This document shows, in pieces, positions 2,866 through 35,971 of a stretch of DNA of 64,000 bases; position 1 is the first letter of the stretch, and each line of letters starts with the position of its first letter. The translations under genes were made by a program, and so were the position numbers. The DNA comes from Candidatus Nezhaarchaeales archaeon (GTDB lineage: Archaea; Thermoproteota; Methanomethylicia; Nezhaarchaeales; WYZ-LMO8). The stretch covers positions 224,001 through 288,000 of the forward strand of contig JAWAKK010000001.1 in NCBI GenBank assembly GCA_038887515.1. Reading direction: 5' to 3'. Below the pieces are notes generated by a model. That model worked only from the letters and a program-made list of their open reading frames with translations, was not told the DNA's origin and did not search any database.

Positions 2866-2900
2866 CACTACTCAAAAAACCAGAAAAACTAGGAGCTTAT

Positions 2901-8803: not shown

Positions 8804-8804
8804 G

Positions 8805-19566: not shown

Positions 19567-20232
19567 ATGTGTCCTACTATCGAAAATGAACTAAAAGAAT
19601 TATTGAAAGCAATAGTGGATCTCGAAGAGGGCAGGGCTATCGAAATAACGAAGAGGCTCGTAGAGTCCGGTGTAGACCCAGTAAGGATACTGGATTGCGT
19701 TCGAGAAGCATCTGAAGAGATAGGGAAGAGATTTGAAAGCGGAGAGTACTTCGTGGCCGACTTAGTGATGGCAGGAGAGATATTGAAAGGAATAAGTGAA
19801 ATAGTGAGACCTAAGCTCAAAGAGTTTGGGAAGTCCAGAGAAGTAATAGGTAGACTATTAATAGGAACTGTTGAGGGAGACATACATGACATAGGTAAGA
19901 AGATCGTTATAACGATGGCTGAAGCCGCTGGGTTCGAAGTCCTCGATATAGGGGAAGATGTGCCCCCACAGAAGTTTGTTGAAGCGATAAAGGAGTTCAA
20001 CCCCGACATAGTTGGAATGTCCGGTTTACTTACGCTAGTAATAGACTCAATGAAGAGGACAGTCGACGCAATAAAGGCTGCAGGTCTTAGAGACAAGGTG
20101 AAAATAATAATCGGAGGTGGAAGGGTGGACGAGCATGCCAAGGAATACACCGGCGCAGATGCTTGGACAAACGATGCTGCGTCGGGAGTAAGAACGATGG
20201 TGAAATGGATGGAGGAGAGGAAAAGGAAATGA
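19567..20232 (+). CDS. Corrinoid (B12-binding) methyl-carrier protein (MtaC/MtoC-like)
   Basis: GTVEGDIHDIGK (DxHxxG), GMSGLL and IIGGG motifs; GGAGG SD upstream. Confidence 0.95.
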   Translation: MCPTIENELKELLKAIVDLEEGRAIEITKRLVESGVDPVRILDCVREASEEIGKRFESGEYFVADLVMAGEILKGISEIVRPKLKEFGKSREVIGRLLIGTVEGDIHDIGKKIVITMAEAAGFEVLDIGEDVPPQKFVEAIKEFNPDIVGMSGLLTLVIDSMKRTVDAIKAAGLRDKVKIIIGGGRVDEHAKEYTGADAWTNDAASGVRTMVKWMEERKRK

Positions 20233-21497
20233 TTAAGGAACCCATAGACGAAATGAGAGAGAGACAGAAGAAAGAGCCCGAAGAGGTCCTGAAAGAGAGG
20301 GCCACAATATTTGAAGCAGCGGTAGATCTTAAAGAGCCCGAAAGAGTTCCATTGCTACTACTTTCATGTGGTCACCTGCTCGGTAAGTATTACAAATTAA
20401 GCGAGATATTCTTCAACTACGATACATTAAAGAAGGCTTCACTAAAAGTCATCGAAAACTTCCCAGCAGACTTATTTGCACCGGTACCTGCCGCCGATGG
20501 CTTCATATTTTCAGTAGCCTTCGCAGATTACCCCGATCTCTCACCCGTAGTCCGCTTCATAGCGGGACCTATACACGACATTTTGGGTGATAAATACACT
20601 CGATGGCCTGGAAGGGAGCTTAGCGAGAACACTACTTTTCAGTTTATAGGTGGAAAGTTCATGGAGGTCGAAGAGTACGACAAGCTTATTGAAGACCCAA
20701 TAGGTTTCATAAATGAGGTAGTGGTGCCTAGAGTTTGCACAAACCTAGCTAAACCAGGTATATCTAGGTACGCGACGTATGCTAGACTCGGCATAGCTGG
20801 TCGAGACTTCCTATTTAACGGTATGATAGGGACAAGCATCGAGCTAACTAAGGTCGGCATACCACCAATTCCGCTTACGTCTGCTTATGCCCCGCTAGAC
20901 GTCATAAGTGACTTTATGAGGTATCCAACTAATATGATGCTCGACTTACGTAGGTACCCTGATAAAGTTAAGAGTGCTACCGAGGTGCTGGTTGAGCCAA
21001 TAATCAAGATAGCGATGGCACTTAAGCCAGCAGGAGCGAAATTTGCTTTCATTCCGCTACATTTAAATGAGATGCTTCCTCCAAAGCTTTACAACGAGTT
21101 CTACTGGCCCTACTTAAAGGAAGTAATAGTGAGACTTTACCAAAACGGTATAAGGTCATACATTCTTTTTGAAGGGAACCACATGCCCCACTTAGAGACG
21201 ATACTTGAGTTACCTAAAGGATGGGGTCTCGGGGTCTTTGAAAAAGGCGATATAAAGAAGATTAGAGAAACCTTAAAGGGACATACTTGCGTTGCCGGAG
21301 GCATCCCCATATCGTTGCTCCTGCAAGCCACTCCGGACAAAATAGATAGTTACGTCAAAGAATTGCTTGCAGACCTAGCTCCAGGTGGAGGCTTCATACT
21401 TGGGCCAGGTATAGGCGAAATACCAGCCGAAGTACCGGATGCCAATTTAAGGGCACTGGTCAACGCAGCACTAAAGTATGGTAGATATAAGAGGTAA
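20229..21497 (+). CDS. UroD-family substrate:corrinoid methyltransferase (aryl O-demethylase MtoB/MtvB/OdmB-like)
   Basis: ATGA overlap with the corrinoid gene. KEPERVP, FMEVEEYDKLIEDP, PLDVISDFMR, FIPLH, FYWPYLKE, LELPKG and APGGGFIL motifs. Confidence 0.8.
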   Translation: MIKEPIDEMRERQKKEPEEVLKERATIFEAAVDLKEPERVPLLLLSCGHLLGKYYKLSEIFFNYDTLKKASLKVIENFPADLFAPVPAADGFIFSVAFADYPDLSPVVRFIAGPIHDILGDKYTRWPGRELSENTTFQFIGGKFMEVEEYDKLIEDPIGFINEVVVPRVCTNLAKPGISRYATYARLGIAGRDFLFNGMIGTSIELTKVGIPPIPLTSAYAPLDVISDFMRYPTNMMLDLRRYPDKVKSATEVLVEPIIKIAMALKPAGAKFAFIPLHLNEMLPPKLYNEFYWPYLKEVIVRLYQNGIRSYILFEGNHMPHLETILELPKGWGLGVFEKGDIKKIRETLKGHTCVAGGIPISLLLQATPDKIDSYVKELLADLAPGGGFILGPGIGEIPAEVPDANLRALVNAALKYGRYKR

Positions 21498-21716: not shown

Positions 21717-23627
21717 ATGTTCGTAAAGAGAGGAGTACACGTTTACAGGGGTAACGAGTATCATCAAAGGCTCCACGATTACGATGAGGCTATAAGACCC
21801 CAGAAGATAAGCTTGGAGACTTGGGGAAAAATTAAGGACAAGATAGAATGCGTGTACTTCCTTGGATACCCTGAAATATCGAAGGAACCTGAAAGTCGAC
21901 CACAATATAAGGTTAAGGTAGAGAAGGACGTTATGATACCTGTGAGGGATGGGGTAAAGATAGCAGCTGACGTCTATAGACCGGATGCAGAGGGCAAGTT
22001 TCCAACGATCTTGTCGTTCGGTAGCTGGGGCAAAGATATATGTGAAATGGTCATGTGGTTGCCTCCTCAGCAGTATCAGCCAGACACACCTTTCTGGGCC
22101 GGGAACCTTGAAGCCGGTCCTATACCTTATCTCGTTGAGCGTGGTTACGTAGTAGTAGTCCCTGATCCTAGAGGATGGAAGCTATCAGGTGGAGAGATAG
22201 ACGTATTTGTTGAAACTATGTTCAATGATTGGCCTCGGGATATATACGACATAATCGACTGGATAATAAAGCAACCCTGGTCTAATGGCGTAGTAGGAAT
22301 GATGGGAGAATGCATATATGGTGCAGCTCAAATATTCGCTGCAGCACTAGCCCCTCATCCAGCCCTTAAGGCTATAGCTCCTTGGGAATTCGTAGGCGTG
22401 CTGGTAAGCGACGTCAATTTTACTGGTGTAGTACATACGATGCTCTACAGCATCTTGACTAATAGGCACGTAAACGACTCAAATGCTTGGCCGAGATGTA
22501 AGCTGAGACCTTGGGCCTTTAAGCATTTAAGCAAAGACGAGGTAGAAAACAGATTAAAGGAACTACTTGAACATCCCGACATCAAGTACAACGCAAGGTA
22601 TTATGGAGTCCTACAGTATCCCGACATGGATCCTGCAGGCTTCATGGTTGATGGGCTAATGTTCTGGTTACATCCACCTCCTCCTGGAAAAGAGTTCCCG
22701 ATAAACGACAACTTCCCTTACGATAAGATAAAGATACCAGTATATCTCAACACACCGTGGAACGTCGTAGTATACATATGGGACACATTCTATGCTTACG
22801 AGAAGGTGGGCTCTAAAGCTAAGAAGTTGTTCGTCTCTATACCAAGAGAGATGAGAAGACCTTGGGTTGACTATCCCGAAGAGATTCTTAGATGGCACGA
22901 CTACTGGCTCAAAGGCATAGACACGGGAATCGTTGATGAACCGCCCGTCAAGCTGTTCGTTACAGGAATAAACATGTGGAAGTTCGAAAGAGAATGGCCT
23001 CCAGCTAGAGCAAGTTATACGAAGATTTACTTGCATCCAGGAGGTTGCTTATCGTTCGAGAAGCCTCCAGCAAACTCGCCCCCAGACTACTTCGTACAGC
23101 ATCCTCTCTACGAGGACCCAACAGTTTACGCGATGTTCTATACGTCAGAGCCTCTAAAAGAGGAAATAGAAGCCATAGGTCCCGTAGAGTTGATACTTGA
23201 GGCTAGCATAGACGGTGACTTCACGAACTGGATCATCGACTTAGTTGATATATCTCCATTAGGAGAAGCGCAGGTTCTAGGTCAAGGATGGCTTTGCACG
23301 TACTTCAGGGAAATTGATGAAGCAAAGTCTAGGCCTGGATGGCCTCGATATAAGAGGACGCATGCTAAACCAACACCTCGCAACGAGAAAATAAGGTATA
23401 GGATAGCATTAATGCCTATTGCCCACGTATTCCAAGTTGGCCATAGAATACAGGTTATAGTTAGAAACCAAGACGACCTGCTGAGCATAGACGGCTTGAT
23501 AAGGGACTACATACTCCCAAGAATGGAGAAAGTCACTCACACGATATACTACGGAGAGTCAGCATTGCTGCTACCTATAGTACCTAAACCGAGAGAGAGG
23601 ATCGTAATAGCGGAGGGACTAGCCTAA
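21717..23627 (+). CDS. CocE/NonD-family alpha/beta hydrolase with atypical catalytic residues
   Basis: DVMIPVRDGVKIAADVYRP, RGYVVVVPDPRG, IIDWIIKQPWSNGVVGM, EILRWHDYWLKG, and a C-terminal PepX-like domain (AHVFQVGHRI). Confidence 0.88.
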   Translation: MFVKRGVHVYRGNEYHQRLHDYDEAIRPQKISLETWGKIKDKIECVYFLGYPEISKEPESRPQYKVKVEKDVMIPVRDGVKIAADVYRPDAEGKFPTILSFGSWGKDICEMVMWLPPQQYQPDTPFWAGNLEAGPIPYLVERGYVVVVPDPRGWKLSGGEIDVFVETMFNDWPRDIYDIIDWIIKQPWSNGVVGMMGECIYGAAQIFAAALAPHPALKAIAPWEFVGVLVSDVNFTGVVHTMLYSILTNRHVNDSNAWPRCKLRPWAFKHLSKDEVENRLKELLEHPDIKYNARYYGVLQYPDMDPAGFMVDGLMFWLHPPPPGKEFPINDNFPYDKIKIPVYLNTPWNVVVYIWDTFYAYEKVGSKAKKLFVSIPREMRRPWVDYPEEILRWHDYWLKGIDTGIVDEPPVKLFVTGINMWKFEREWPPARASYTKIYLHPGGCLSFEKPPANSPPDYFVQHPLYEDPTVYAMFYTSEPLKEEIEAIGPVELILEASIDGDFTNWIIDLVDISPLGEAQVLGQGWLCTYFREIDEAKSRPGWPRYKRTHAKPTPRNEKIRYRIALMPIAHVFQVGHRIQVIVRNQDDLLSIDGLIRDYILPRMEKVTHTIYYGESALLLPIVPKPRERIVIAEGLA

Positions 23628-23769: not shown

Positions 23770-23773
23770 AAAT

Positions 23774-25315
23774 ATGGAAATTAGGTATGATATATTGATA
23801 CCAACAATGGTATACTACTTCATAGCCACCATAGGTTTTGGTCTCTACTATCGCAAGAGATATGGTAAAGCTGCATACGACTTCGCTTTGGCGAGCAGAA
23901 CTCTACCGTGGTGGCTAGTTTTCACAGGCGCTGTCCTCATACCTTTCGGAGGGGGGCATACCGTATCGCCAGCCGAGGCTACATGGGCTTTCGGTGTTGG
24001 CCCACTGTTATGGCCCATCTTGGGCGCCGTTCCCTCGCTCTTGTTGCTCTTCTTCGTTACTGGTAGAATCATGAGGGGAATAGGTGCTAGAACCGTCGGT
24101 GAGGCTATGGAAATGACTTTCGGCCCTACGGCAAGGATTCTACTGGCGGTCACGACATGCCTCCACATGATGATTATAGCTGGTCTAGAACTTTATGGCA
24201 CAGCCTCGGCAATCTACGGGTTTACAGGGTTCGAATACGCATTCTGCATAGTCATAGCTTTCGTCTTAATCATAATATACACATTCTTCGCGGGCGTAAT
24301 GCAAGCCTCGGTACTCAATGCTATTAACCTTGCAGTCTACTACGTAGGCTTCATATTAGCGTTCGTAGCCTTAACCTTCTGGCTTGCACCTATCGGCGGT
24401 TGGGATGCTGCCGCCCAAGCGATAGTTCAGCGTATGGGCGATGCGGGGGTAACACTGTTCTCTAGTAGAGCAGCTGAGATGATAGCAATCCTCGGCATAC
24501 CTATAGCTATATCCCACATAGCTGCCGTCACGGTATGCCAAGGAGCCGCTCAACCCGTTCTATCAGCAAAAGATCCAAAGGAGATAATTAAGGGATGGCC
24601 CCTACTCATAATATTTAACGGCCTTGCCCCCATAATATGGGTCATCGCAGGTCTCTTAGCCTTCTCAGCGCCAGCTTCCCTTTATGGCGGGGCCGCAACA
24701 CTCATAGAAAATATGAGGGCTCAAGGGTTAGCCGTGCCAGCGACTATAGTCACAATAACACAGCTATGGCCTGCCGCCGCCGCGGCACTATTAATGGCAC
24801 TATTAGCTGCAACGCTGTCTACAGCCGGGGCCTTCTGTTTAGGTGCTGCTACGTCACTAACTGAGGACATAGTTAGGCGCTTCTTAAAACCGGATATGAG
24901 CGAGAGAAGTGCAGTAACACTGATGAGGCTCCTAATAGTGTTAACTGGAGTCATAGCGCTAATAAGCGCCTTCCTGAAACCATTCTTGATGGCTGGCTTC
25001 ATCTGGATATTTACGTTCTACATACCTCTATTCGTATCGTTCATACTAGGGCTCGCTTGGAAGAGAAACGAAAAAGCAACAATAGCGACCACCATGATAA
25101 GCTGGGCCATAAATATACTATGGATACTCTTCAAGCCGGTAATAGAGCAGACGATGCCAATATACTTACACCCAGCTATGGGTAACGTCTACCCAGTCAC
25201 GATAGCCTCAATAATAGTATACGTAGTTCTAGTACTAGTAATGAAAGGAACTAAACCGGGCCTACTTAAAGAAATTAAAGGTACCGCCGTCGAACAAGCC
25301 ATAGTAAAACCATAA
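23774..25315 (+). CDS. Sodium:solute symporter (SSS) family protein 1
   Basis: About 13 TM helices; DFALASRTLPWWL, GGGHT, AATLST and LTEDI motifs. Confidence 0.92.
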   Translation: MEIRYDILIPTMVYYFIATIGFGLYYRKRYGKAAYDFALASRTLPWWLVFTGAVLIPFGGGHTVSPAEATWAFGVGPLLWPILGAVPSLLLLFFVTGRIMRGIGARTVGEAMEMTFGPTARILLAVTTCLHMMIIAGLELYGTASAIYGFTGFEYAFCIVIAFVLIIIYTFFAGVMQASVLNAINLAVYYVGFILAFVALTFWLAPIGGWDAAAQAIVQRMGDAGVTLFSSRAAEMIAILGIPIAISHIAAVTVCQGAAQPVLSAKDPKEIIKGWPLLIIFNGLAPIIWVIAGLLAFSAPASLYGGAATLIENMRAQGLAVPATIVTITQLWPAAAAALLMALLAATLSTAGAFCLGAATSLTEDIVRRFLKPDMSERSAVTLMRLLIVLTGVIALISAFLKPFLMAGFIWIFTFYIPLFVSFILGLAWKRNEKATIATTMISWAINILWILFKPVIEQTMPIYLHPAMGNVYPVTIASIIVYVVLVLVMKGTKPGLLKEIKGTAVEQAIVKP

Positions 25316-25335: not shown

Positions 25336-25415
25336 AATGGTAAGTAATAGTAAGCAATAGATGGACTTTTATTTATGTGAACAAAAATAGTTAATGAGAT
25401 ATATGGGAAGCACTT

Positions 25416-25762: not shown

Positions 25763-26509
25763 ATGATAAACTATTGGGTGCAACGCATGCTTGAAGGAAA
25801 AGGGTTATCAAAATATTTCGGTAAACTAGCAGCAGTTAAAGATGTTAACTTCAAGATATGCGAAAGGGAAATAGTGGGCCTCATAGGTCCAAATGGTTCC
25901 GGAAAAACGACTTTATTTAACGTAATATCAGGATTCTACAAACCGGAAACAGGTAAAGTCTTCTTCATGGGGAAAGACATAACAGGTCTTCCCCCTTTTA
26001 AGATATGTAGAATGGGTATTGCAAGGACGTTTCAACTTATTAGGCCCTTCTTGACCATGACGGTGCTTGAGAACGTAATGGTTGGTAGCCTATATGGCGC
26101 CGGTAAGGGTATGATTACTAGTCGAGAAGAAGCCATGGAACTCCTCAAATTCGTCGGGTTAGACAAGAAAAAAGACGTCTTAGCAAGCCAGCTTAACCTT
26201 TGCGAGCGAAAATTCCTTGAAATCGCGAGGGCCTTAGCTACGAAACCTAAGGTGCTTTTACTTGATGAACCATTAAGCGGTCTAAACCCTACGGAGATAC
26301 TTCAAGCAAGAGAACTAATCAGAAAAATTAGGGACGACTTCGGAATTACAGTGTTTTGGGTAGAACACATAATGAAGGCCCTAAGAGGAGTCGTTGAAAG
26401 AGTCATCGTATTGAATTATGGAGAGAAGATAGCCGAGGGCCCCCTCGAAGAGGTCACGCGAGACCCTAAGGTCGTAGAAGCTTACTTAGGAGAGAGGTGG
26501 ATGATCTAG
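25763..26509 (+). CDS. livG: Liv-type ABC transporter ATPase (start may be 25787)
   Basis: GPNGSGKTT, GIARTFQ, LLLDEP and EAYLG motifs. Confidence 0.93.
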   Translation: MINYWVQRMLEGKGLSKYFGKLAAVKDVNFKICEREIVGLIGPNGSGKTTLFNVISGFYKPETGKVFFMGKDITGLPPFKICRMGIARTFQLIRPFLTMTVLENVMVGSLYGAGKGMITSREEAMELLKFVGLDKKKDVLASQLNLCERKFLEIARALATKPKVLLLDEPLSGLNPTEILQARELIRKIRDDFGITVFWVEHIMKALRGVVERVIVLNYGEKIAEGPLEEVTRDPKVVEAYLGERWMI

Positions 26510-26518
26510 GTGATATGA

Positions 26519-27226
26519 ATGCTTGAAGTACAAAACGTAGACGTATTTTACGGAGAGCTGCAAGTCCTATGGGGTGTTTCGTTAAAGGTTGAGAAGGGCG
26601 AGATAGTTGCATTGATAGGTCCTAATGGAGCAGGCAAATCAACACTATGCAAGTCGGTCATAGGCTTGCTCCGCCCAAAGAACGGCACCATCACATTCAT
26701 GGGCAAGCGGATAGACAACTTATCAACGCCAGACATAATAAGGCTCGGAATATCCATAGTACCAGAGGGTCGAAGGCTCTTTGGAAACATGACAGTAAGG
26801 GAAAACCTCGAACTTGGAGCATACGTTTCCGAGGTCAGAAAGAACATAGGTGAACAGCTTGAATGGGTCTTCAACATATTCCCCATATTAAAGGAAAGGC
26901 AGAATCAGCTTGCAGGAAGTTTGAGCGGTGGCCAGCAACAGATGTTGGCTATAGCGAGAGCTTTGATGTCGAAACCTAGGTTCCTAATACTCGATGAGCC
27001 GTCGCTCGGTTTAGCACCGAAAGTTGTGCTCACAGTTTATGAAATTATAAGGAAGTTGCGCGATGAAGGGGTAACCATACTTCTAGTCGAGCAGTATGCT
27101 AGTCAAGCTTTGAAGAACTCCGATAAAGCTTTCATACTTGAAAATGGGAGGATCGTTGGTTGGGGGGCGTCAGAAAACCTTCTTAAAGACGAACGTGTTA
27201 GGAAAGCTTACTTAGGAGAGGAGTAG
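26519..27226 (+). CDS. livF: Liv-type ABC transporter ATPase
   Basis: GPNGAGKST, VPEGRRLF, LSGGQQQMLAIARALM and LDEPSLGLAP motifs. Confidence 0.95.
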   Translation: MLEVQNVDVFYGELQVLWGVSLKVEKGEIVALIGPNGAGKSTLCKSVIGLLRPKNGTITFMGKRIDNLSTPDIIRLGISIVPEGRRLFGNMTVRENLELGAYVSEVRKNIGEQLEWVFNIFPILKERQNQLAGSLSGGQQQMLAIARALMSKPRFLILDEPSLGLAPKVVLTVYEIIRKLRDEGVTILLVEQYASQALKNSDKAFILENGRIVGWGASENLLKDERVRKAYLGEE

Positions 27227-27227
27227 C

Positions 27228-28112
27228 ATGTCTGTTCCTGGACTTACAGACTTATTAAGCATAGGAAACATAGTAGTCAACGGCTTGCTCCTTGGCGGTC
27301 TATTCGCATTAATAGCGTTTGGATTATCGGTATTCGTGGGAGTCATGAGGGTTATAAACATAGCTCACGGAGACTTTGCAATTTTATCAGCATACTTTGC
27401 GCTATCAATAATGTTATTCCTAAGAGTTGATCCTTTCATAAGCTTAATAGCCGTTGTACCGATAATGTTCGTGGTGGGCTACGCCTTTCAAAGGTTCATA
27501 ATAAATAGGCTACTCCCCATGGGAGCTAACCAACCTGTCATAGCGACTTTTGCACTAAGCATCGTAATACAAAATCTATTACTCTTGACTTTCACAGCGG
27601 ACGCCCGAAGCCTGATAGTTCCCTACTTACTAGAGCCCCTAGAATTCTTTGGAATAAGCATTTCACGACGCTACGGGGTGAGCTTCCTTACTGCCCTTAT
27701 AATGTTCGTGGCTATATACTTCTTCCTTAAGAAGACTTATACCGGCAAGGCTATGCGAGCGGTGCCATTTGATATCGAAGCTGCGAAAATGCTTGGAATA
27801 AGGCCCTTCTCGATCTATAATTTTGCGGCAGGCTTCGCTATGATTGCGGTAGCTGTTGCAGGCGTGCTGTTAGGTATGGTTTTCACATTTTACCCCGATA
27901 CGGGCCCGATGTTCCTATTATTGTCTTTCGGAGCCGTAGTGGTCGGGGGCGTTGGAAGCCTAAAGGGAACTCTCATAGGAGGCATAATAATGGGCGAAGC
28001 ACTGGTCCTGGGAGGATACTTGGGTTCACACTACCAGTTAATGTTTTGCTACCTAGTAATATTAGCAATCCTAATAGCAAGACCTCAAGGAATCTTCGGG
28101 GAGAGGTTCTAA
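27228..28112 (+). CDS. livH: Liv-type ABC permease
   Basis: NGLLLG..FALIA.GL, INIAHG, GKAMRA and RPQGIFG motifs. Confidence 0.92.
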   Translation: MSVPGLTDLLSIGNIVVNGLLLGGLFALIAFGLSVFVGVMRVINIAHGDFAILSAYFALSIMLFLRVDPFISLIAVVPIMFVVGYAFQRFIINRLLPMGANQPVIATFALSIVIQNLLLLTFTADARSLIVPYLLEPLEFFGISISRRYGVSFLTALIMFVAIYFFLKKTYTGKAMRAVPFDIEAAKMLGIRPFSIYNFAAGFAMIAVAVAGVLLGMVFTFYPDTGPMFLLLSFGAVVVGGVGSLKGTLIGGIIMGEALVLGGYLGSHYQLMFCYLVILAILIARPQGIFGERF

Positions 28113-28113
28113 G

Positions 28114-29064
28114 ATGTCCATACTAAAATTTGAGCTTAAACGAAACTATGTTTACATAGTAGTCGTAATAGCAATACTTGCATCCCTACCTATGTGGGTA
28201 GGCGGCTTTTTGAGAGATGCATTGATACTCTTCTTCTTATACCTTGCTGCTGCTGAGGTCTGGGGCTTTATGGCTAAGCACGCCGGCATGGTTTCTCTAG
28301 GTCAACAAATTTTCATAGGAATTGGAGGCTATATGACTGCGGTCCTATGTATGTATGAGGGCCTGCCGTTGTGGGCTAGTGTTATAGTCGCCGCCTTAAT
28401 AGGGAGTGGATTGGCAGCAGCCCTCTCCTTTCCGTTGTTAAGGTTGCGCGGCATTTACTTCTCGATAGGCTCCTTCCTTACAGCTGAAATTATTAAGTTA
28501 ATCTTCAATAGCTGGGAGTACGTTGGCGCCGGTAAGGGGCTAATATTTGTCGGAGCCTACGGTATACCCACGACAGTAATCTACTACCCTGCCATGGTTA
28601 TCGGTCTGTCCTCTATGTTCTTAATATATTACTTGTACCATTCAAAGCTAGGCTTCGGCCTTAGAAGCATAGGAGCTGATGAAGATGCTGCCGCTAGCCT
28701 TGGCGTTGACACATTTAGATGTAAAGCTCTCCTCTTCGTCTTTTCCGGCTTCATTACAAGCTTAGTGGGAGCAATAAATGCAATCCACCATACCTATCTA
28801 CATCCAACTTCAGCATTCAACATACTTTGGACGGTAAGCTTCCTATTCGTAGCGGTCCTGGGAGGACTTGGAACGATAATTGGGCCAGTTATCGGAAGCG
28901 CTATCTTTACGGCTTTAACATACTTGTTCTCTATGTACATTGGGCTAAGCCTGCTACTAGAGGGATTGGTCGTACTCGTTATATTACTGGTAGTTCCAGG
29001 AGGAATTTGGGGCTCCATAGCAAAGAAGTTGAGATACAAGATAAAACTAAAAGAACCCCTCTAA
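28114..29064 (+). CDS. livM: Liv-type ABC permease
   Basis: GMVSLGQ, LRLRGIYFSI, DEDAAASLGVD, LGGLGTIIGP and PGGIWG motifs. Confidence 0.92.
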   Translation: MSILKFELKRNYVYIVVVIAILASLPMWVGGFLRDALILFFLYLAAAEVWGFMAKHAGMVSLGQQIFIGIGGYMTAVLCMYEGLPLWASVIVAALIGSGLAAALSFPLLRLRGIYFSIGSFLTAEIIKLIFNSWEYVGAGKGLIFVGAYGIPTTVIYYPAMVIGLSSMFLIYYLYHSKLGFGLRSIGADEDAAASLGVDTFRCKALLFVFSGFITSLVGAINAIHHTYLHPTSAFNILWTVSFLFVAVLGGLGTIIGPVIGSAIFTALTYLFSMYIGLSLLLEGLVVLVILLVVPGGIWGSIAKKLRYKIKLKEPL

Positions 29065-29136
29065 TGGTTCATAATTGAAGGAGCTCGATGATTACCCGGT
29101 AATAAAACTTTTATTCTTTTTCATTACTATATTCTA

Positions 29137-30507
29137 TTGATTCTTATGAAGAAGACGTATGCTGCAATCATTGCTATAGTGGTCGTTGTCGTCGTTATTG
29201 TTGCGGGCGTTGCCGCCTACTTCTTAACCCTACCTCCACCAGGTCCAGCTGCCCCCGAGTACATAAAGATCGGCTGGCCAGTCCCATTAACTGGGGGCAT
29301 AGCAGCCTTCGGAGAGCCAGATCCTTGGATTGCTAGACAAATCGAGGATTACGTTAACAACGTTATGGGCGGCGTTTACTTAGCTGAGTACGGTAAGAAG
29401 GTCCCGATAAAGATCATTATGAGGGATACTAAGAGCGATCCTAATACTGCTGCTTCAGTTGCTGCTGAGCTAATAACTAGAGAGAACGTAGACTTAATGG
29501 TAGTCCTACACACGCCCGGAACAGTTAACCCGGTAACGGGGCAATGTGAGAGGTACGGGGTACCATGCATAGCTCTCGATTGTCCCGTGCTCTCATGGCT
29601 TGAAGGTGCTCCTTACAGGTGGTCGTACTTAGCGTTCTGGACTGAAGTCGACGTAGCCCACGTTTTTGTGGGGATATGGGACTCCTTGGGAGACAAGACT
29701 AACAAAGTTGTTGCAGGTCTATGGAGCGATGATCCTGACGGCAGGACGTTCCGAGAACTAACAGTTAAGCTGGCAAGGACACGGGGATATAGAGTTATAG
29801 ACTCCGGCTTAGTGCCCTACGGCACCTCCGATTTCAGCACATACATTGAAGAGTGGAAGAGAGCTGGAGCAGAAATACTTACTGGGAACTTTATTCCACC
29901 AGACTTTGCTACTCTCTGGAGGCAATGCCGTGAGCGCAGCTTTGTACCTAAAGTCGCTACAATAGGAAGGTCAGTTCTCTTCCCAGCTCAAGTAGAGGCC
30001 CTAGGAGGCGACTTAGGGGTCGGCCTGACAACTGAAGTATGGGTGCACGTGGTTTCTCCATTCCATTCATCGCTGACTGGCCAGACTCCAAGAGACCTAG
30101 CTGAAGCATACGAAAAAGCTTCGGGCAAACAGTGGAGTACGCCGTTAATATTCTCGCACGCGGCTTTCGAGCTAGTGGTCGACGTTCTTAAGAGGGCTGG
30201 TAGCTTGGATAAGGAGAAGGTTAGGGTGGCTATTGCGAATACTGACTTGGATACCATTGTTGGTCACATAAACTACAAGAAGCCGTTAAAGGAGATACTT
30301 AGCCCCGAAGAGTATGCAATCTACCAAGAATATCCGAAGTTGGTACAATACCAAGACCACTACTCCATAACTCCAGTCATCGGCGGACAGTGGGTTAGAG
30401 GGACGAAGTGGCCGTTCGAGCTCGAAGTAATCTACAACTGGAAGTACGGCAACATACCAGAAACAGCACCAGTAAGGCTTATACCCGAACTTCTCGGCAG
30501 AACATAA
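29137..30507 (+). CDS. ABC transporter substrate-binding protein (LivJ/K-like PBP1 family; aromatic ligand plausible)
   Basis: N-terminal TM anchor, IKIGWPVPLTG..AAFG, RDTKSDPN and LDTIVG motifs. Confidence 0.88.
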   Translation: MILMKKTYAAIIAIVVVVVVIVAGVAAYFLTLPPPGPAAPEYIKIGWPVPLTGGIAAFGEPDPWIARQIEDYVNNVMGGVYLAEYGKKVPIKIIMRDTKSDPNTAASVAAELITRENVDLMVVLHTPGTVNPVTGQCERYGVPCIALDCPVLSWLEGAPYRWSYLAFWTEVDVAHVFVGIWDSLGDKTNKVVAGLWSDDPDGRTFRELTVKLARTRGYRVIDSGLVPYGTSDFSTYIEEWKRAGAEILTGNFIPPDFATLWRQCRERSFVPKVATIGRSVLFPAQVEALGGDLGVGLTTEVWVHVVSPFHSSLTGQTPRDLAEAYEKASGKQWSTPLIFSHAAFELVVDVLKRAGSLDKEKVRVAIANTDLDTIVGHINYKKPLKEILSPEEYAIYQEYPKLVQYQDHYSITPVIGGQWVRGTKWPFELEVIYNWKYGNIPETAPVRLIPELLGRT

Positions 30508-30679
30508 ATCTTCAGAAACTTCATACTATTTTTTTGTGTAAAGTCTTAGAGAGAAGAAAATTTTCTTCTCTTTTTTTTAAATTTTATCCATGAAATTTAA
30601 TCATGCTACTTCTTTTTTTCACTACTTATTGAGAGGTGCAAACCTTAAATACTCACTTCATGTCCCTTACCTATTTATT

Positions 30680-33316
30680 GTGGGAACCTTGCCTGAACCT
30701 GAGACCGGTTTTGGTATATTATTGCCTGACGGTACTAGGCGATGCACTGGCTGTACTGTCGGCGGACCAGTGTTCGCCTACGTCAAAGACGGAAAGATAA
30801 CTAGGGTGACGCCAATCGAATTCGGGCCAGACGATGCTGAAAGCTGGGAAATAGAGGCTAGAGGGAGAGTCTTTAGACCTCCTCGAAAGGCACTTGTAGC
30901 GCCATACGTCTTGTCTGTTAGGAGCAGAATTTACTCGCCCGAAAGGCTACTGACGCCCATGAAGAGGATTGACTTTGATCCTGACGCTCCACCTGACAAG
31001 AGAAAGCAAGAAAACAGGGGGAAGTCGGGTTACGAACCTATAACTTGGGAAGAAGCTCTAGAGATAGTTGCCAACGAGATAGAGAGGGTTAGGAGGCAGT
31101 ACGGACCTGAAGCGATTGCCGCTACAGCAGATTCTCACTACGAGTGGGGCAACATACACTATAGGCATAGCACTCGCTTTAGGTTCTTCAACTTACTTGG
31201 TTTCACTTACGTAGATCATAACCCTGATAGCTGGGAGGGATGGCATTGGGGAGCAATGCACATGTGGGGCTTCAGCTGGAGGTTGGGTATCCCCGAACAG
31301 TACGATCTATTGTGGGACGCATTAAACCACTGCGACATGATCGTGTTCTGGAGTGCAGACCCGGATACGAATAGAGCTATAGGCTATCAAGGATATGAGT
31401 CAGCCCCCTGGAGGCTTTGGCTTAAGGAGCTCGGAGTCAAGGTCGTGGCTGTAGATCCGTTCTACAATTGGACAGCCCACATTATGTGGGCCGACAAGTG
31501 GTTTGCCCCTAGACCCGGTACCGATACTGCGCTGGCGGCAGCAATAGCCTATGTATGGATAACGGAGGATAGATACGACAAGAAGTTCGTTGAGACTAAA
31601 TGTTATGGATTTGACGAATTCAAGAAGTACATCCTCGGAGAAGCCGATCATACACCTAAGACCCCCAAGTGGGCTGAAGAACTGACCGGAATACCGGCTC
31701 GAGAAATAGTGGCGCTTGCTAGAGAGTGGGCTTCGAAGAGGACGATGCTAGCCGCTGGAGGTCTAGGTGGTTGGGGCGGAGCGTGTAGGAGTGCATATGG
31801 TCATGAGTGGGCCAGGTTCATGGTTGCTCTTGCCGCAATGCAAGGCATCGGAAAGCCGGGAGTCAACATTTGGGGTACTACGCAAGGCGCCCCCGTTGAC
31901 TGCACGTTCTTCTTCCCAGGATACGCTGAAGGTGGTATCTCGGGAGACCCCGTGAAGAGCGCTGCCTTCAAGAACCTATTAGCTCGCGGAATGACTAAGA
32001 TACCCACTTATTGTACGATACACGACAACAACCACATAGCTAGGTTACTACTACCCGAATGCATAACGTATCCACCAGAGAAGTACGTTACTTGGAGGGG
32101 GAGAGGCTTCTGTGGAGAGTCTCTACAGCATCAGTTTAGGCCGTATAGATATCCAGCCCCTGGCTATAACCCCATGAAGATGCTTTACAGGATAGGTGCT
32201 GGCTACATAGGTACGATGACCCACACAAACAGGTGGGTAAGGGCCTATAGGAGCCCGAAGTTAGAGTTCTTCGTCGTACAAACAATATTTGCTAATGAAC
32301 CTGAGTGCAAGTTTGCGGACGTTTTGTTACCAGTCTGTACGAACTTTGAACGTTGGGATATAAGTGAGTGGGCAAGCTGCTCTGGTTACATACCGCATTC
32401 ATTCACTGGCGTCAACCATAGAACCATAGTACTACACATGAAGTGTATAGAACCTCTAGGACAGTCTAGAAGCGACTATTGGATATTTGAGCAGCTAGCA
32501 AAGAAGCTCGGCTTCTGGTACGAGTTCACGGAAGGAGGTATGACAGACCTAGATTGGGTCAAGAGGATGTTTGAGGTAAGCGACTTACCAAAGTACATAA
32601 CTTGGGAAGAGTTCAAGAAGAAGGGCTACTTCGTAGTACCACCGCCAAAGCCCTACAAGCCTACGCCTGCCCTAAGGTGGTTCTACGAGGATAGAGAAAG
32701 GGACACACCCGACTGGGCTCCGCCATACCCGAAGAAGGGCCTTGCCACGCCAACCGGTAAAATAGAGTTCTACTCCAAGACTATAGAGAAGTTCAAGCAG
32801 GATGATCCGGAAGAAGAGAGACCGATCATACCCATGTACATACCTTCGTGGGAGGGTCATACGAGTGAGATGGCCAAGAAGTACCCGCTACAACTCGTAA
32901 CACCTCACCCGAGGTACTCTTACCACACGCACCACGATGGTAAGGGTACGTGGATAAACGAGATTCCAGAGCATAGAATAAAGAAGGAGGATGGAAGGTA
33001 CTACTGGGTGCTATATATCAATCCAAAGGATGCAGAGGCTAGAGGCATAAAACACGGCGATATAGTCAGAGTCTTTAACGATAGAGGCTCAGTGCTATGT
33101 GTAGCCTTCGTCACAGAGAGAGTGAGACCGGGGGTTGTAAGGGCTTGGGAATCCTGCAATGTTTATGATCCAATAGGTGAACCTGGCGATCCCAAGAGCG
33201 TAGATAGAGGAGGTTGCTTGAACCTCATTACTCCAGAGAAGTTCCTATCAAAGAACGCCTGCGGTATGGCTCCAAACTCATGCCTAGTCGAAGTTGAGAA
33301 GTGGAAGGGGGTGTAG
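30680..33316 (+). CDS. athL: Molybdopterin oxidoreductase, pyrogallol-phloroglucinol transhydroxylase large subunit homolog
   Basis: Long motifs matching Pelobacter acidigallici AthL as I recall it: GGPVF.YVKDGKI, HNPDSWEGWHWG.MHMWGFSWRLG.PEQYDLL, AAGGLGGWGGACR, FPGYAEGGISGD, CTNFERWDISE.A.CSGYIP and DRGGC.N..TP. No Tat signal. The start is likely GTG 30680 or TTG 30689, not 30590. Confidence 0.9.
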   Translation: MGTLPEPETGFGILLPDGTRRCTGCTVGGPVFAYVKDGKITRVTPIEFGPDDAESWEIEARGRVFRPPRKALVAPYVLSVRSRIYSPERLLTPMKRIDFDPDAPPDKRKQENRGKSGYEPITWEEALEIVANEIERVRRQYGPEAIAATADSHYEWGNIHYRHSTRFRFFNLLGFTYVDHNPDSWEGWHWGAMHMWGFSWRLGIPEQYDLLWDALNHCDMIVFWSADPDTNRAIGYQGYESAPWRLWLKELGVKVVAVDPFYNWTAHIMWADKWFAPRPGTDTALAAAIAYVWITEDRYDKKFVETKCYGFDEFKKYILGEADHTPKTPKWAEELTGIPAREIVALAREWASKRTMLAAGGLGGWGGACRSAYGHEWARFMVALAAMQGIGKPGVNIWGTTQGAPVDCTFFFPGYAEGGISGDPVKSAAFKNLLARGMTKIPTYCTIHDNNHIARLLLPECITYPPEKYVTWRGRGFCGESLQHQFRPYRYPAPGYNPMKMLYRIGAGYIGTMTHTNRWVRAYRSPKLEFFVVQTIFANEPECKFADVLLPVCTNFERWDISEWASCSGYIPHSFTGVNHRTIVLHMKCIEPLGQSRSDYWIFEQLAKKLGFWYEFTEGGMTDLDWVKRMFEVSDLPKYITWEEFKKKGYFVVPPPKPYKPTPALRWFYEDRERDTPDWAPPYPKKGLATPTGKIEFYSKTIEKFKQDDPEEERPIIPMYIPSWEGHTSEMAKKYPLQLVTPHPRYSYHTHHDGKGTWINEIPEHRIKKEDGRYYWVLYINPKDAEARGIKHGDIVRVFNDRGSVLCVAFVTERVRPGVVRAWESCNVYDPIGEPGDPKSVDRGGCLNLITPEKFLSKNACGMAPNSCLVEVEKWKGV

Positions 33317-33319
33317 GAT

Positions 33320-34162
33320 ATGGTTAGGTACGCAATAGTCGTAGACATAACTAAATGCAATGGTTGCTACAACTGTTTCTTAGCTTGTAAAGACGAGTTT
33401 TGGGATAACGATTGGCTACCGTACTCCGTTGGACAGCCTAGACATGGACATCAATGGATTAGGCTACTGTATAAGGAGAGAGGAAACTATCCACATGTCA
33501 GGATCACGTATGTTCCAATGCTGTGTTTCCACTGCGAAAATCCAAACTGCATAAAGGCGGCTAAAGAAGGCGCCGTATACAAGAGACCAGACGGAATAGT
33601 AATAATAGACCCAGTAAAGGCCAAGGGACAGAGACAACTTGTCGAAGCTTGTCCCTATGGAAACATTTTCTGGAACGAAGAGAAAAACGTACCTCAAAAA
33701 TGTACCATGTGCATACACTTACTAGAACAGGGATGGAAAGAACCTCGCTGTGTACAAGCATGCCCAACAGGAGCTTTAAAGTTTGGTGATCTAGATGATC
33801 CGAAGAGTGAAGTTTACGGAATGGTAAAGTCCGGGCGTGCGATACCATTTAAGCCCGAAGCGGGACTGAGGTCAGGAGTATTCTACGTGGGTCTCCACCG
33901 ATACGCAAAGGAGTTGCTGGCTGGAAGTGTCGCACTTAAAGGTAGTGACGAGGTTGCTAAAGGCGCGAAGGTAATGCTAGTAAATAAGAAGACAGGCGAG
34001 AAGCTGGTCACAGAGACAAACGAGTTTGGATTATTCGAGTTCGACGGCCTTGAGTTAGGGCAATACACGTTGACCATAGAGTATCCAGGCTACAAGACCA
34101 AGGCCCTCGACATAGTTCTCTCGAAGAGCTTATATATGGGTTACATTGAGCTAGAAAGATAA
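33320..34162 (+). CDS. bthL: Transhydroxylase small Fe-S subunit homolog (3x[4Fe-4S] plus C-terminal fibronectin-like domain)
   Basis: CNGCYNCFLACKDE, ERGNYP, CFHCENPNC, CPYG and KCTMC motifs; the C-terminal ETNEFGLFEFDGL..G.YT extension is characteristic of BthL. Confidence 0.9.
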   Translation: MVRYAIVVDITKCNGCYNCFLACKDEFWDNDWLPYSVGQPRHGHQWIRLLYKERGNYPHVRITYVPMLCFHCENPNCIKAAKEGAVYKRPDGIVIIDPVKAKGQRQLVEACPYGNIFWNEEKNVPQKCTMCIHLLEQGWKEPRCVQACPTGALKFGDLDDPKSEVYGMVKSGRAIPFKPEAGLRSGVFYVGLHRYAKELLAGSVALKGSDEVAKGAKVMLVNKKTGEKLVTETNEFGLFEFDGLELGQYTLTIEYPGYKTKALDIVLSKSLYMGYIELER

Positions 34163-34196
34163 TTAATTTTACAAGAAAAGTGAAGGGGTAATTGAC

Positions 34197-34334
34197 ATGT
34201 TAATCCCCATAGAACAAATCCCCATAGAAGCCCTGCCAGTAAGACTATTTGTTGAAGCGTGGATAGCAATGATAATCACGAACATATGGTTCTACATAGG
34301 CTACAAGATCGCTCAGAGTAGAAAGAAGGAGTGA
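34197..34334 (+). CDS. Unannotated small membrane protein (type B) upstream of symporter 2
   Basis: MLIPIEQIPIEALPVRLFVEAWIAMIITNIWFYIGYKIAQSRKKE*; GAAGGGG SD; homolog at 25416-25544. Confidence 0.82.
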   Translation: MLIPIEQIPIEALPVRLFVEAWIAMIITNIWFYIGYKIAQSRKKE

Positions 34335-34474: not shown

Positions 34475-34480
34475 TATGAC

Positions 34481-35971
34481 ATGGCGCTTAGGATGGAGAT
34501 ATTACTTCCAGTAGTGATATACTACTTGGTAGTCACCATTGGTGTTGGGACCTACTTCATAAGGAAATACGGTAGGGCGGCGAGAGACTTTACGGTTGCA
34601 GCGATGTCATTGCCGTGGTGGCTAGTAGCTATGGGCATAGTATTGGGGCCTTTCGGTGCCGGACATACATTGAGCCCGGCCGAAGCATCATGGAGATGGG
34701 GCGCTACGCCGAACTGGTGGTCAATAGTAGGTGGTACCCTATCACTAACTATAGCGATATTCACTATCGGTAGGTGGTACAGGAGGCTTGGAGCTTCAAC
34801 AATAGCTGAAGCCTACGAGAAGGTTTTCAGCCCAGGAGTAAGAGCGCTTGCGTCAGCTACAACTCTCTTGGCATCTCTAGCTATAGGTAGTCTAGAGTTT
34901 TATGCAAGCGCTGCAGCTATCTCGGGCTTTACCGGACTAGACATAGGGTTCTGCCTCATATTCTCCTTCGTGTTCTTCATAATATACGTGTTGTTCTCGG
35001 GAGTAATGCAGCTAGCCGTCGTCAACTTAATAAACATAATAGTGTACTACGTTGGCGTGGTACTAGCGCTCGTAGTTCTAACTTCAATTGTCGGACAAAT
35101 AGGTGGTTGGAAGGTCGCTGAACAATTAATAGTTCAGAAAGTGGGTACAAAGGGAGTTACATTATTTGCTCCTGAGCTCGGACCATTCCTCGGCTTAGTG
35201 CTCCCAATAGCAATACTTCATGCATGTTATACGCCACTAGTCCAAGGGTTCATGCAACCAGTGCTAGCTGCAAAGGATGAGAAGCAGATAACGAAGGGGT
35301 GGCCCCTAGTGCTAGTGTTGAACGCAAGTGCTACGACGGCATTCGTGGTCATAGGTTTGGCGTCGTTTACTCTGCCGTCGACGCTTTACGGTCCACTAGC
35401 TCCTACCATAGAAGCGCTTAGAGCCCAAGGTGCAGGCGTGCCAGCCATAATACTTACCATAACGGAACTACTTCCTGGTGCAGGTGCGCTAATCTTGATG
35501 TCGTTGTTAGCTGCCACGTTATCCACGGGTGGTGCTTTCGTACTAGGTTCTTCAACTGCAATAGTCGAAGACCTTATATCAATGTACAAGAAGTTCGACG
35601 AGAGAGTAAGACTGATACTGCTACGTGTATTCATTATCGTCGCATGTATACTATGTCTCGTTGGAGCAATGTTCATGCCATACCTGATAGCTGCCTTCTT
35701 ATGGGTATTCGGATGGACTGTGCCCTTCTTCGTTGGTTTAGTGTTTGCATGGTTATGGCGCAGAAGCACTAAGGCAATGCTTGGAACGGTAGCGATCACG
35801 TGGATCGTGCACGTGCTATGGACTATATTCGGAGTCAATGTACCCTTTGAGTGGCTAAAGCCTCCTCTAGGCAACACCTATCCGCTAATCATAATAGCCA
35901 TAATAGTATACGTGGTACTGGCCTTAGCATCCAAGGATAGCAAAGAACCCGGTAAGTTGCTGACAAAATAA
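34481..35971 (+). CDS. Sodium:solute symporter (SSS) family protein 2, paralog of symporter 1
   Basis: DFTVAAMSLPWWL, PFGAGHTLSPAEA, QPVLAAKD and LLAATLSTGGAF; many motifs shared with 23774-25315. Confidence 0.92.
   Translation: MALRMEILLPVVIYYLVVTIGVGTYFIRKYGRAARDFTVAAMSLPWWLVAMGIVLGPFGAGHTLSPAEASWRWGATPNWWSIVGGTLSLTIAIFTIGRWYRRLGASTIAEAYEKVFSPGVRALASATTLLASLAIGSLEFYASAAAISGFTGLDIGFCLIFSFVFFIIYVLFSGVMQLAVVNLINIIVYYVGVVLALVVLTSIVGQIGGWKVAEQLIVQKVGTKGVTLFAPELGPFLGLVLPIAILHACYTPLVQGFMQPVLAAKDEKQITKGWPLVLVLNASATTAFVVIGLASFTLPSTLYGPLAPTIEALRAQGAGVPAIILTITELLPGAGALILMSLLAATLSTGGAFVLGSSTAIVEDLISMYKKFDERVRLILLRVFIIVACILCLVGAMFMPYLIAAFLWVFGWTVPFFVGLVFAWLWRRSTKAMLGTVAITWIVHVLWTIFGVNVPFEWLKPPLGNTYPLIIIAIIVYVVLALASKDSKEPGKLLTK

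Follow-up and report, generated by a model that had tools for sequence, protein, structure and literature searches.

A predicted AthL/BthL pyrogallol transhydroxylase in a reverse-gyrase-bearing archaeon of the Nezhaarchaeales

Introduction

Among molybdenum enzymes, pyrogallol transhydroxylase is a well-known curiosity: a hydroxyl group passes from one phenol to another, yet the reaction involves no net redox change. To our knowledge, the enzyme has so far been studied in a single mesophilic bacterium only. Whether archaea also possess such an enzyme is a question raised by a gene pair in a 64,000-nucleotide stretch of a Candidatus Nezhaarchaeales genome (GenBank assembly GCA_038887515.1, contig JAWAKK010000001.1, positions 224,001 to 288,000; hereafter the window, whose first nucleotide is position 1), which a first-pass annotation took for a complete and true transhydroxylase composed of a large subunit (AthL) and a small subunit (BthL). 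The analysis described here favours that reading, and the pair is likely to encode a cytoplasmic AthL/BthL transhydroxylase placed amid a plausible route from phenols to acetyl-CoA. It is an archaeal, presumably heat-stable member of a known enzyme family and not a new kind of enzyme.

The family in question, the Ser-coordinating RhL/PgtL family, belongs to the MopB superfamily and also contains the resorcinol hydroxylase RhL/RhS of Azoarcus (Aromatoleum) anaerobius, according to PMC10100899. Table 2 of this MopB survey of 2023 gives 285 RhL/PgtL matches, of which 0 are archaeal, and the survey places the origin of the family later than the rise of land plants. The main texts of the open-access literature, as far as they are available, yielded no description of an archaeal pyrogallol–phloroglucinol transhydroxylase: AthL is used there as a reference clade in a published Methanoperedenaceae tree, and one publication naming the transhydroxylase concerns Hydrogenophaga. 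Nothing in the same literature joins phloroglucinol with Bathyarchaeia, or pyrogallol with names beginning in Nezhaarchae-, and the accessible texts on pyrogallol and Bathyarchaeota make no link between them; archaeal phloroglucinol clusters are mentioned, among the openly available texts searched, only by PMC10470551. Public databases automatically name some archaeal relatives (P0023 and P0070) “pyrogallol hydroxytransferase large subunit”.

The gene pair

The pair consists of two adjoining plus-strand open reading frames (ORFs), 30590..33316 and 33320..34162, and both match the subunits of the crystallized enzyme across their full length, which bears out the claim of an apparently complete AthL and BthL. 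The longest ORF of the large subunit starts at ATG 30590 and encodes 908 residues, and this frame is used for residue numbers below; GTG 30680, the start chosen in the first-pass annotation, lies in the same frame and gives 878 residues, while TTG 30689 gives 875. As the N-termini of homologues begin at a conserved M-EPETGFG motif and the 30 codons upstream of it are not conserved, AthL likely starts at TTG 30689 or GTG 30680, and the 30 residues upstream are probably not translated. The large catalytic subunit is accordingly placed at 30689..33316 (+) and the small subunit at 33320..34162 (+). AthL is the sole gene of its type in the host genome (G000), in which the other two PF00384 matches are weak.

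Large subunit and active site

Both subunits were compared with all PDB chains by phmmer, and residues were paired from the HMMER alignment. The best match of the large subunit is the pyrogallol hydroxytransferase large subunit of Pelobacter acidigallici (AthL, also called PgtL; PDB 4v4c, 4v4d, and 4v4e), to which residues 51-907 align against 6-869 of chain 4v4c_A at 1074.6 bits (E = 0), far outside the range of chance. Second among the solved proteins comes the dimethyl sulfoxide (DMSO) reductase 1eu1_A, which reaches 286.9 bits. The identity to P. acidigallici AthL is about 55-60%, as estimated from bit scores and one hand-counted block. Pfam recognizes PF21423 (the AhtL-like first domain; 85.7 bits, cut-off 27), PF00384, and PF01568 in the protein, which is predicted to bind a molybdenum or tungsten bis-molybdopterin guanine dinucleotide (Mo/W-bis-MGD) cofactor. 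The large subunit lacks the N-terminal four-cysteine Fe–S motif, since Molybdop_Fe4S4 is not matched and the first 60 residues hold just two cysteines.

The five sequence motifs on which the first-pass annotation relied are all found, with DSH at residue 181, YRHS at 191, HNPDSWEGWHWG at 210, FPGYAEGG at 442, and CSGY at 597. The alignment to 4v4c_A that it had proposed as a check was run, and all nine of the active-site positions it covers carry identical residues, namely H144, R153, D174, S175, W176, W354, Y404, C557, and Y560 in the crystal numbering, which are H183, R192, D213, S214, W215, W395, Y445, C597, and Y600 in the 908-residue frame. Their codons span 31136..32389 (+) and lie at 31136-31138 (H183), 31163-31165 (R192), 31226-31234 (D213, S214, and W215), 31772-31774 (W395), 31922-31924 (Y445), 32378-32380 (C597), and 32387-32389 (Y600). 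In the crystal enzyme, we take the serine to be the metal ligand, the histidine, aspartate, and tyrosine to be catalytic, and the remaining positions to line the pocket. These roles were reportedly described in the crystal-structure paper that appeared in PNAS in 2004.

In an alignment of 105 family members, H144, D174, S175, W176, and Y404 are invariant in the 88 rows of the main clade (88/88), and the other positions vary to different degrees (Y560, 85/88; R153, 74/88; C557, 58/88; W354, 43/88). A paralogue clade of 13 rows, at 34-39% identity, keeps Y404 in one row and Y560 and R153 in none of the 13. The near or complete lack of these three residues in the paralogues indicates that the pocket positions discriminate between clades, and the window protein has the full reference set.

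Small subunit and cellular location

The small subunit, a protein of 280 residues, aligns with chain 4v4c_B over 2-278 against 2-274, tail included, at 228.9 bits. It contains 12 cysteines (13, 16, 19, 23, 69, 72, 77, 111, 128, 131, 144, and 148), every one of which is kept in 57-67 of 67 full-length homologues. When it is compared with the four-cluster PsrB/NrfC protein 2vpw_B, the ligands of one cluster are missing, as they are in 4v4c_B, and the subunit is predicted to carry three [4Fe–4S] clusters, with the ligands of the fourth gone. Pfam places Fer4_11, a ferredoxin-type domain, in the protein, followed by PF13620, a CarboxypepD_reg-like beta-sandwich, at 201-267 within a C-terminal sandwich of about 201-270. 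The tail that the first-pass annotation described as fibronectin-like and diagnostic is therefore present, but the name is a loose one for what Pfam regards as a carboxypeptidase-regulatory-like domain. In related genomes, BthL-like genes at L103 8854-9432 (genome G058) and L105 10904-11485 (genome G055) match about 193 residues of the window BthL, and these genes, which lie beside Nezhaarchaeales-type AthL copies, may lack the C-terminal beta-sandwich or carry a diverged one.

Neither the N-terminus of the large subunit nor those of 13 aligned homologues show a twin-arginine (Tat) motif of the RRxFLK type, and the genes that flank the pair encode ABC and SSF transporters, not membrane anchors of the NrfD/DmsC type. 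Both features had been claimed from the letters of the window, and they fit the cytoplasmic, non-respiratory enzyme that was predicted from them. The P. acidigallici enzyme has the same traits: a PF21423 domain, no N-terminal Fe–S cysteine motif, no Tat signal, no anchor, and a beta subunit with 12 cysteines for three clusters and a C-terminal beta-sandwich.

These traits also bear on a different identity for the pair, that of an S- or N-oxide reductase of the trimethylamine-N-oxide, DMSO, or biotin sulfoxide reductase type. Close relatives carry such names at JGI (“trimethylamine-N-oxide reductase” and “S/N-oxide reductase-like”), and the NCBIfam bisC_fam, dmsA, and torA models match the large subunit at 305-391 bits. 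However, the cut-offs of these models are far from reached (bisC_fam, 391 against 1017.55; dmsA_ynfE, 331 against 777.7; TorA, 305-320 against 909-1465), the transhydroxylase structure outscores DMSO reductase by 1074.6 to 287 bits, and the pair has features of the transhydroxylase, namely PF21423, a beta subunit with three clusters and an added domain, and an N-terminus free of a Tat signal. The Pelobacter enzyme itself shows DMSO/TMAO reduction as a side activity. We regard an oxide reductase as very improbable. The full-length similarity to the crystal enzyme, the nine identical residues, and the three-cluster beta subunit with its tail instead support the claim that the pair is a true transhydroxylase, as far as homology can indicate it.

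Linkage to phloroglucinol-consuming enzyme families

Work on Clostridium scatologenes (PMC10470551) assigns four protein families to phloroglucinol breakdown: a short-chain dehydrogenase/reductase (SDR) is the phloroglucinol reductase (PGR), a cyclase is the dihydrophloroglucinol cyclohydrolase (DPGC), a 3-hydroxyacyl-CoA-dehydrogenase-like (3HCDH) protein is the (S)-3-hydroxy-5-oxohexanoate dehydrogenase (TfD), and a BKACE protein is the triacetate acetoacetate-lyase (TAL). The same paper also mentions CoA-transferase genes and reports a phloroglucinol cluster in the genus Archaeoglobus.

Genes around AthL relatives were counted in 78 loci from a pattern scan that covers one genome per prokaryote species; a neighbour was accepted if it covered 50% or more of the query and lay no further than 10 kb from AthL, and many loci are cut by contig ends. 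A BthL homologue is found near AthL in 66 of the 78 loci, a cyclase homologue in 22, an SDR in 21, a small cupin in 18, a BKACE protein in 12, and a 3HCDH-like protein in 11, while five ABC-transporter components occur in 13-21 of the loci, including the Bathyarchaeia-labelled L002, L003, L005, and L049. CoA-transferases and a CocE-like hydrolase were each counted in 0 of 78. The Bathyarchaeia-labelled locus L002 shows the order ABC importer–AthL–BthL–3HCDH–BKACE–cupin–SDR, with the last four genes directly downstream of the pair, and similar AthL clusters are present in loci of Dehalococcoidia, Actinomycetota, Desulfobacteraceae, and Holophagae. The strongest functional argument for the assignment is that the main AthL clade appears to travel with phloroglucinol-consuming enzyme families across distant lineages, and the enzyme of the window probably converts trihydroxybenzenes of the pyrogallol type into phloroglucinol.

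Many genomes hold a second AthL/BthL-like pair, divergent at 34-44% identity and often adjoining the main pair, as in L004, L007, L010, L039, and L076, and in the loci L092-L095 of kin genomes. This second pair keeps the His and Asp-Ser positions, is without Y404, Y560, and R153, scores 472 bits to the crystal enzyme, and forms clades of its own, one of them archaeal. One idea is that it may supply the tetrahydroxybenzene co-substrate.

A putative phloroglucinol cluster in the host genome

About 320 kb further along the contig that bears AthL, a divergent cluster (L084 8040-14548) encodes a Cyclase-family protein, an SDR, and a small cupin on one strand, and two CoA-transferase subunits, a BKACE protein, and a 3HCDH-like protein on the other. 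Compared by family alone, these comprise the four families described for C. scatologenes and a CoA-transferase (PMC10470551); unlike the clostridial cluster, that of G000 has an extra conserved cupin, and a thiolase gene was not seen in it. Archaeoglobus proteins share 72-73% identity with the cyclase, and other similar proteins bear the labels Bathyarchaeia, Caldarchaeum, and Freyarchaeota. At E <= 1e-40, the cyclase is found in one of the 62 genomes of the window's class, which is G000 itself, and BKACE is common to congeners at 84-93% identity. No SDR, cyclase, or CoA-transferase was found near the BKACE and 3HCDH genes of the congener G058 (L102), and this reduced cluster suggests gene loss in G058 or gain in G000; a fragment of about 51 cupin residues, 92% identical, stands beside the two genes there (L102 7854-8006).

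The cupin of G000 has 118 residues (L084 9931-10287; contig 1, about 577.9 kb) and adjoins the SDR and cyclase genes, and its best curated match is below the cut-off. It is kept beside SDR, cyclase, or AthL genes in 18 of 78 AthL loci at 39-62% identity (Bathyarchaeia-labelled, Dehalococcoidia, Desulfobacteraceae, and Holophagae), and it is not among the four phloroglucinol enzyme families named in the accessible text of PMC10470551. Past the cluster, at L084 16794-19769 (about 584.8-587.8 kb), genes encode an Amidohydro_2 protein and a tungsten-type aldehyde:ferredoxin oxidoreductase (AFOR). The Amidohydro_2 family includes non-oxidative aromatic-acid decarboxylases. A gallate decarboxylase was not identified among the two UbiD-family genes of G000, one of which gives the best VdcC score, 260 bits against a cut-off of 650, and the other of which scores 386 bits as a generic UbiD. 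G000 also has a UbiX-like gene, and as none of these genes lies near AthL or the phloroglucinol cluster, none was assigned this role.

Transport and candidate O-demethylation genes around the pair

Directly upstream of AthL, a Liv/branched-chain-type ABC importer (25763..30507, +) is encoded by genes for two ATPases, two permeases, and a binding protein (ABC_tran twice, BPD_transp_2 twice, and Peripla_BP_6), and probably takes up the phenolic substrate. Bathyarchaeia-labelled loci have the same order of ABC importer, AthL, and BthL. Two transporters of the sodium:solute symporter family (PF00474) flank this block, one at 23774..25315 (+) and the other, which matches PF00474 only, directly 3' of BthL at 34481..35971 (+); the 3' end of the second matches the congener G058 at 76% nucleotide identity. 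A CocE/NonD-family (S15) hydrolase at 21717..23627 (+; TIGR00976 at 214 bits against a cut-off of 66, Peptidase_S15 and PepX_C) may be a candidate for the hydrolysis of aromatic esters such as gallate or galloyl esters, a substrate that is proposed solely from its context.

Further upstream, at 16375-21497 and 9-14 kb from AthL, one cluster holds a complete set of the four families described for MtoA, MtoB, MtoC, and MtoD in PMC8630106, as they are known from Methermicoccus shengliensis and Archaeoglobus fulgidus (PMC8630106, PMC8359953). It encodes an MtrH-like, MtoA-like methyltransferase (16375..17277, −; PF02007 at 208 bits), a RACo-type, MtoD-like reductive activator of corrinoid proteins (17418..19331, +; Fer2 with the RACo linker, middle, and C-terminal domains), an MtoC-like corrinoid protein (19567..20232, +; B12-binding_2 and B12-binding), and a methyltransferase of the URO-D/MtaA-CmuA superfamily (20163..21497, +; PF01208, E 3e-22), which is an MtoB/MtvB-like O-demethylase candidate. 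The last assignment is the weakest of the four and is suggested by the family and the four-gene context, as the NCBIfam MtaA/CmuA models match the protein weakly and under their cut-offs.

Archaeal growth through Mto has been reported on 2,6-dimethoxyphenol, and methoxyhydroquinone is also given as an Mto growth substrate in PMC8359953. Full demethylation of 2,6-dimethoxyphenol would yield pyrogallol directly. The published Mto archaea release the hydroxylated aromatic with its ring uncleaved (PMC8359953), whereas the window genome also contains putative ring-degrading genes and has AthL/BthL 9 kb downstream of Mto. The Mto genes are shared with the congeners G056 and G058 at about 71% nucleotide identity, and their position next to AthL is specific to genome G000. 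That the neighbouring O-demethylase feeds AthL/BthL is, in our estimate, about evenly balanced.

In the remainder of the window, a trio of genes at 8736-12993 (FAD_binding_4, an Fe–S protein with CCG domains, and a further FAD_binding_4) resembles a complex of the glycolate- or D-lactate-oxidase type and is preceded by ATP-grasp and CBS-domain genes. The window contains no tRNA and no Rfam matches.

Host, phylogeny and origin

The host genome measures 1.29 Mb, is 94% complete by marker genes, and contains the window within a contig of 776 kb. The 5' part of a reverse gyrase gene, a marker of hyperthermophiles, occupies 1..2868 (−; zf_Rg, DEAD, Toprim, and Topoisom_bac) and runs off the window. 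This gene, together with the archaeal labels of the closest relatives, is consistent with the thermophilic archaeon that was proposed as the host, in contrast to the mesophilic bacterium P. acidigallici, and the thermostability of AthL/BthL is a fair inference from it. The five smallest contigs of G000 (C5-C9; 6.6-12 kb) have a GC content of 0.50-0.63 against 0.44-0.45 in the large contigs, and may not be part of the genome.

Two trees of the large subunit were computed. A FastTree of 105 rows comprises the window protein, 85 ORFs with at least 85% query coverage out of 105 matches, and 19 database proteins that are the top or named matches out of 120 listed; an IQ-TREE quick search of 53 rows comprises 46 of these rows and seven from kin genomes. 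Both trees pair the window protein with the metagenome protein P0003 (85% identical) within a fully supported clade of eight to nine rows, whose labelled members are all “Candidatus Bathyarchaeia” metagenome-assembled genomes (MAGs) from hot springs at 73-77% identity. This clade, supported at 100%, joins the window protein and P0003 to the Bathyarchaeia-labelled L002, L003, L004, and L049 and proteins P0004-P0006. It is nested in a fully supported main clade together with Dehalococcoidia, Bacillota, Actinomycetota, Desulfobacteraceae, and a Nezhaarchaeales-type group, and the window protein stands well apart from the paralogue clades at 34-44% identity. The bit scores to 4v4c_A are 1266.6 for the second copy of L043 (Eubacterium-labelled), 1220.8 for L039 (Geopsychrobacteraceae), 1129.5 for L007 (Dehalococcoidia), 1074.6 for the window protein, and 472.4 for a paralogue. 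As the highest scores belong to the Bacillota and Geopsychrobacteraceae copies, the reference enzyme would sit with these, within the same main clade, and the window protein belongs to a separate archaeal subclade.

Bathyarchaeia are a different archaeal class, and the search throughout the window's own class gave nothing above 65%. Five of its 62 genomes, G000 included and all of one family, match AthL at E <= 1e-150; three genomes of the class hold a main-clade AthL at 63-65% identity, placed in two other subclades, and P0070, which is publicly labelled Nezhaarchaeales, groups with the copies from two kin genomes, in keeping with the assignment of the host. Forcing the window copy together with the Nezhaarchaeales-type copies, a group picked after the tree had been seen, costs 63 log-likelihood units (approximately unbiased (AU) test, p = 0.011). 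AthL and the binding-protein gene have GC contents of 0.50 and 0.495, compared with 0.446 in the genome as a whole, and only 1% of the 2.6-kb windows of contig 1 reach 0.485. The grouping with Bathyarchaeia-labelled genes instead of the copies of congeners, together with the atypical GC, suggests lateral acquisition, and as the nearest relatives are archaeal, the immediate exchange probably took place among hot-spring archaea. Lateral transfer among archaea of hot springs, with Chloroflexi taking part, would then have built up the pathway as a whole, which was not simply taken from bacteria. The first-pass annotation had considered the enzyme to be acquired from or shared with anaerobic bacteria; the sharing stands, as the family is common to Dehalococcoidia, Bacillota, Actinomycetota, and Desulfobacteraceae, but the nearest relatives, at 73-77% and, for the metagenome protein, 85%, suggest that the latest exchange took place among archaea.

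Assembly, expression and metal

Another explanation is that the pair is recently imported cargo, silent or unintegrated, or an artefact of assembly or binning. On its side are the GC content, the grouping with Bathyarchaeia-labelled genes, and unitigs that break inside the binding-protein gene at 29176-30299, where the depth is 25-52 against 16-18. Two metatranscriptome runs of the same study as the DNA gave 0 reads on 16000-35999, a count that at a sampling of about 3% of each run is no test of expression. The assembly was checked against contigs of the likely source run of G000, which is not independent evidence. In it, one contig of 16,682 bp spans from 30270 to beyond 35999 without a difference and joins AthL/BthL to the second symporter, the gene that matches G058; the depths on the two sides of the break are alike (15.6 and 17.8), and the break with its raised depth indicates that a related sequence, common to other organisms or strains, co-occurs in the sample. 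A second hot-spring run holds near-identical fragments of 29176-30299 alone. Neither ORF is disrupted or lacks a functional residue, the contig extends over 776 kb, and a matching downstream pathway is present in the same genome. Cargo or artefact is, on these grounds, quite improbable, and a resident transhydroxylase is favoured.

As for the metal, the capacity to make the cofactor appears to be present in G000, given a MobA-like domain in an ORF of 473 residues and a ModA-like binding protein, whose 60 bits fall just short of the cut-off (62.5). The model of the tungstate-binding protein WtpA (TIGR03730) finds no match in the genome. Neither this null result nor the ModA-like protein nor the AFOR gene beside the phloroglucinol cluster decides between Mo and W for AthL.

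Substrate and reaction

The likeliest rival accepts the AthL/RhL family and proposes another phenol or another mode of reaction, in which phloroglucinol is not the direct product or pyrogallol is not the main substrate. Examples would be an interconversion of hydroxyhydroquinone and tetrahydroxybenzene, or a water-dependent hydroxylation as in resorcinol hydroxylase. The former interconversion is known from Pelobacter massiliensis. Resorcinol hydroxylase uses water and an electron acceptor, is associated with the membrane, and feeds a hydroxyhydroquinone dehydrogenase pathway.

The family is large, with several clades and paralogues without known specificity and with 2-5 copies in many genomes, and the window clade is not the nearest to the crystal enzyme (1074.6 bits against 1220-1267 in Bacillota and Geopsychrobacteraceae). 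In addition, H145 of the crystal enzyme is a Tyr in the window protein, as it is in 3 of 88 main-clade rows, the trees were made without RhL, and methoxyhydroquinone, named above as an Mto growth substrate (PMC8359953), would yield hydroxyhydroquinone. Against this, the pocket agrees with that of the pyrogallol enzyme at each of the nine positions, the host genome and the related loci tie AthL to downstream families specific to phloroglucinol, and a hydroxyhydroquinone route, too, would end in phloroglucinol by the same type of reaction. No anchor gene adjoins AthL/BthL and the linked pathway is that of phloroglucinol, which sets the pair apart from resorcinol hydroxylase on the general description of that enzyme. 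A different substrate or mode is unlikely, though less so than the other two alternatives, and the conversion of pyrogallol to phloroglucinol is preferred.

Several observations weigh against this preference. The substitution at H145 lies in the enzyme itself, and both trees lack the authentic P. acidigallici AthL as well as RhL. The enzymes of the phloroglucinol cluster are assigned by family and context alone and are candidates in this sense: the best solved relatives of the SDR are SDRs of the gluconate 5-dehydrogenase type, and a phloroglucinol reductase is not among the 60 PDB chains listed for it; BKACE stays under the NCBIfam cut-offs (Kce, 257 against 382; 3,5-dioxohexanoate enzyme, 213 against 430); and for the cyclase, no close solved or curated relative was found, with weak matches to kynurenine formamidase and isatin hydrolase only. 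Moreover, the cluster is some 320 kb away from AthL and the Mto genes lie upstream of it, unlike the arrangement in L002. The adjacency of Mto and AthL is not conserved, as none of the 78 loci has the MtrH-like gene or the corrinoid protein near AthL, and RACo and the URO-D-like methyltransferase are each found there in one; G056 has no AthL match, and in G058, AthL is about 70 kb from the Mto genes. G000 is without the second AthL/BthL-like pair that many genomes have alongside AthL, and the tetrahydroxybenzene co-substrate has no assigned source.

Proposed pathway

On the favoured reading, AthL and BthL would form a soluble heterodimer in the cytoplasm, a member of the DMSO-reductase (MopB) superfamily, and Ser214 of the large subunit is predicted to bind the Mo (or W) bis-MGD. 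His183, Asp213, Tyr445, Arg192, Cys597, and Tyr600 would form the substrate pocket, and pyrogallol (1,2,3-trihydroxybenzene) and its co-substrate 1,2,3,5-tetrahydroxybenzene would exchange a hydroxyl group in this pocket, giving phloroglucinol (1,3,5-trihydroxybenzene) with no net redox change.

The enzyme would thereby provide the middle step from plant-derived phenols to acetyl-CoA. Substrates would first be taken up through the ABC importer, the symporters, or both, and the Mto-type O-demethylase may turn syringyl-type methoxyphenols, gallate esters, or gallate into pyrogallol, perhaps aided by the CocE-like esterase and by a UbiD-type decarboxylase encoded elsewhere. AthL/BthL would then convert pyrogallol to phloroglucinol, and the distant cluster would reduce the phloroglucinol, open its ring, and cleave the product through the PGR-like SDR, the DPGC-like cyclase, the TfD-like 3HCDH, the TAL-like BKACE, and the CoA-transferase. 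The AthL gene itself was probably gained laterally from other hot-spring archaea. Judged by gene content, it is plausible that the route is complete, starting with methoxylated or galloyl phenols and ending in acetyl-CoA.

Implications

The broadest form of the proposal is that this hyperthermophilic, Nezhaarchaeales-type host would be the first archaeon with a predicted capacity for complete anaerobic cleavage of the ring, a step further than methoxydotrophy, with Mto demethylation of syringyl-type lignin phenols, a heat-stable (possibly tungsten) transhydroxylase, and the fermentation of phloroglucinol to acetyl-CoA, as a module passed among hot-spring archaea and Chloroflexi; we advance it tentatively, and lean slightly towards doubt. 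If it is true, the mineralization of polyphenols at high temperature would be partly archaeal, and the RhL/PgtL family would not be confined to Bacteria, contrary to the survey of 2023. If the enzyme is active, it would offer a thermostable version for mechanistic and structural work, including the question of Mo versus W, and would exemplify the movement of a plant-phenol pathway between thermophilic archaea and bacteria. It would also lead to the prediction that some hot-spring archaea cleave the rings of lignin- and tannin-derived compounds and do not merely demethylate them.

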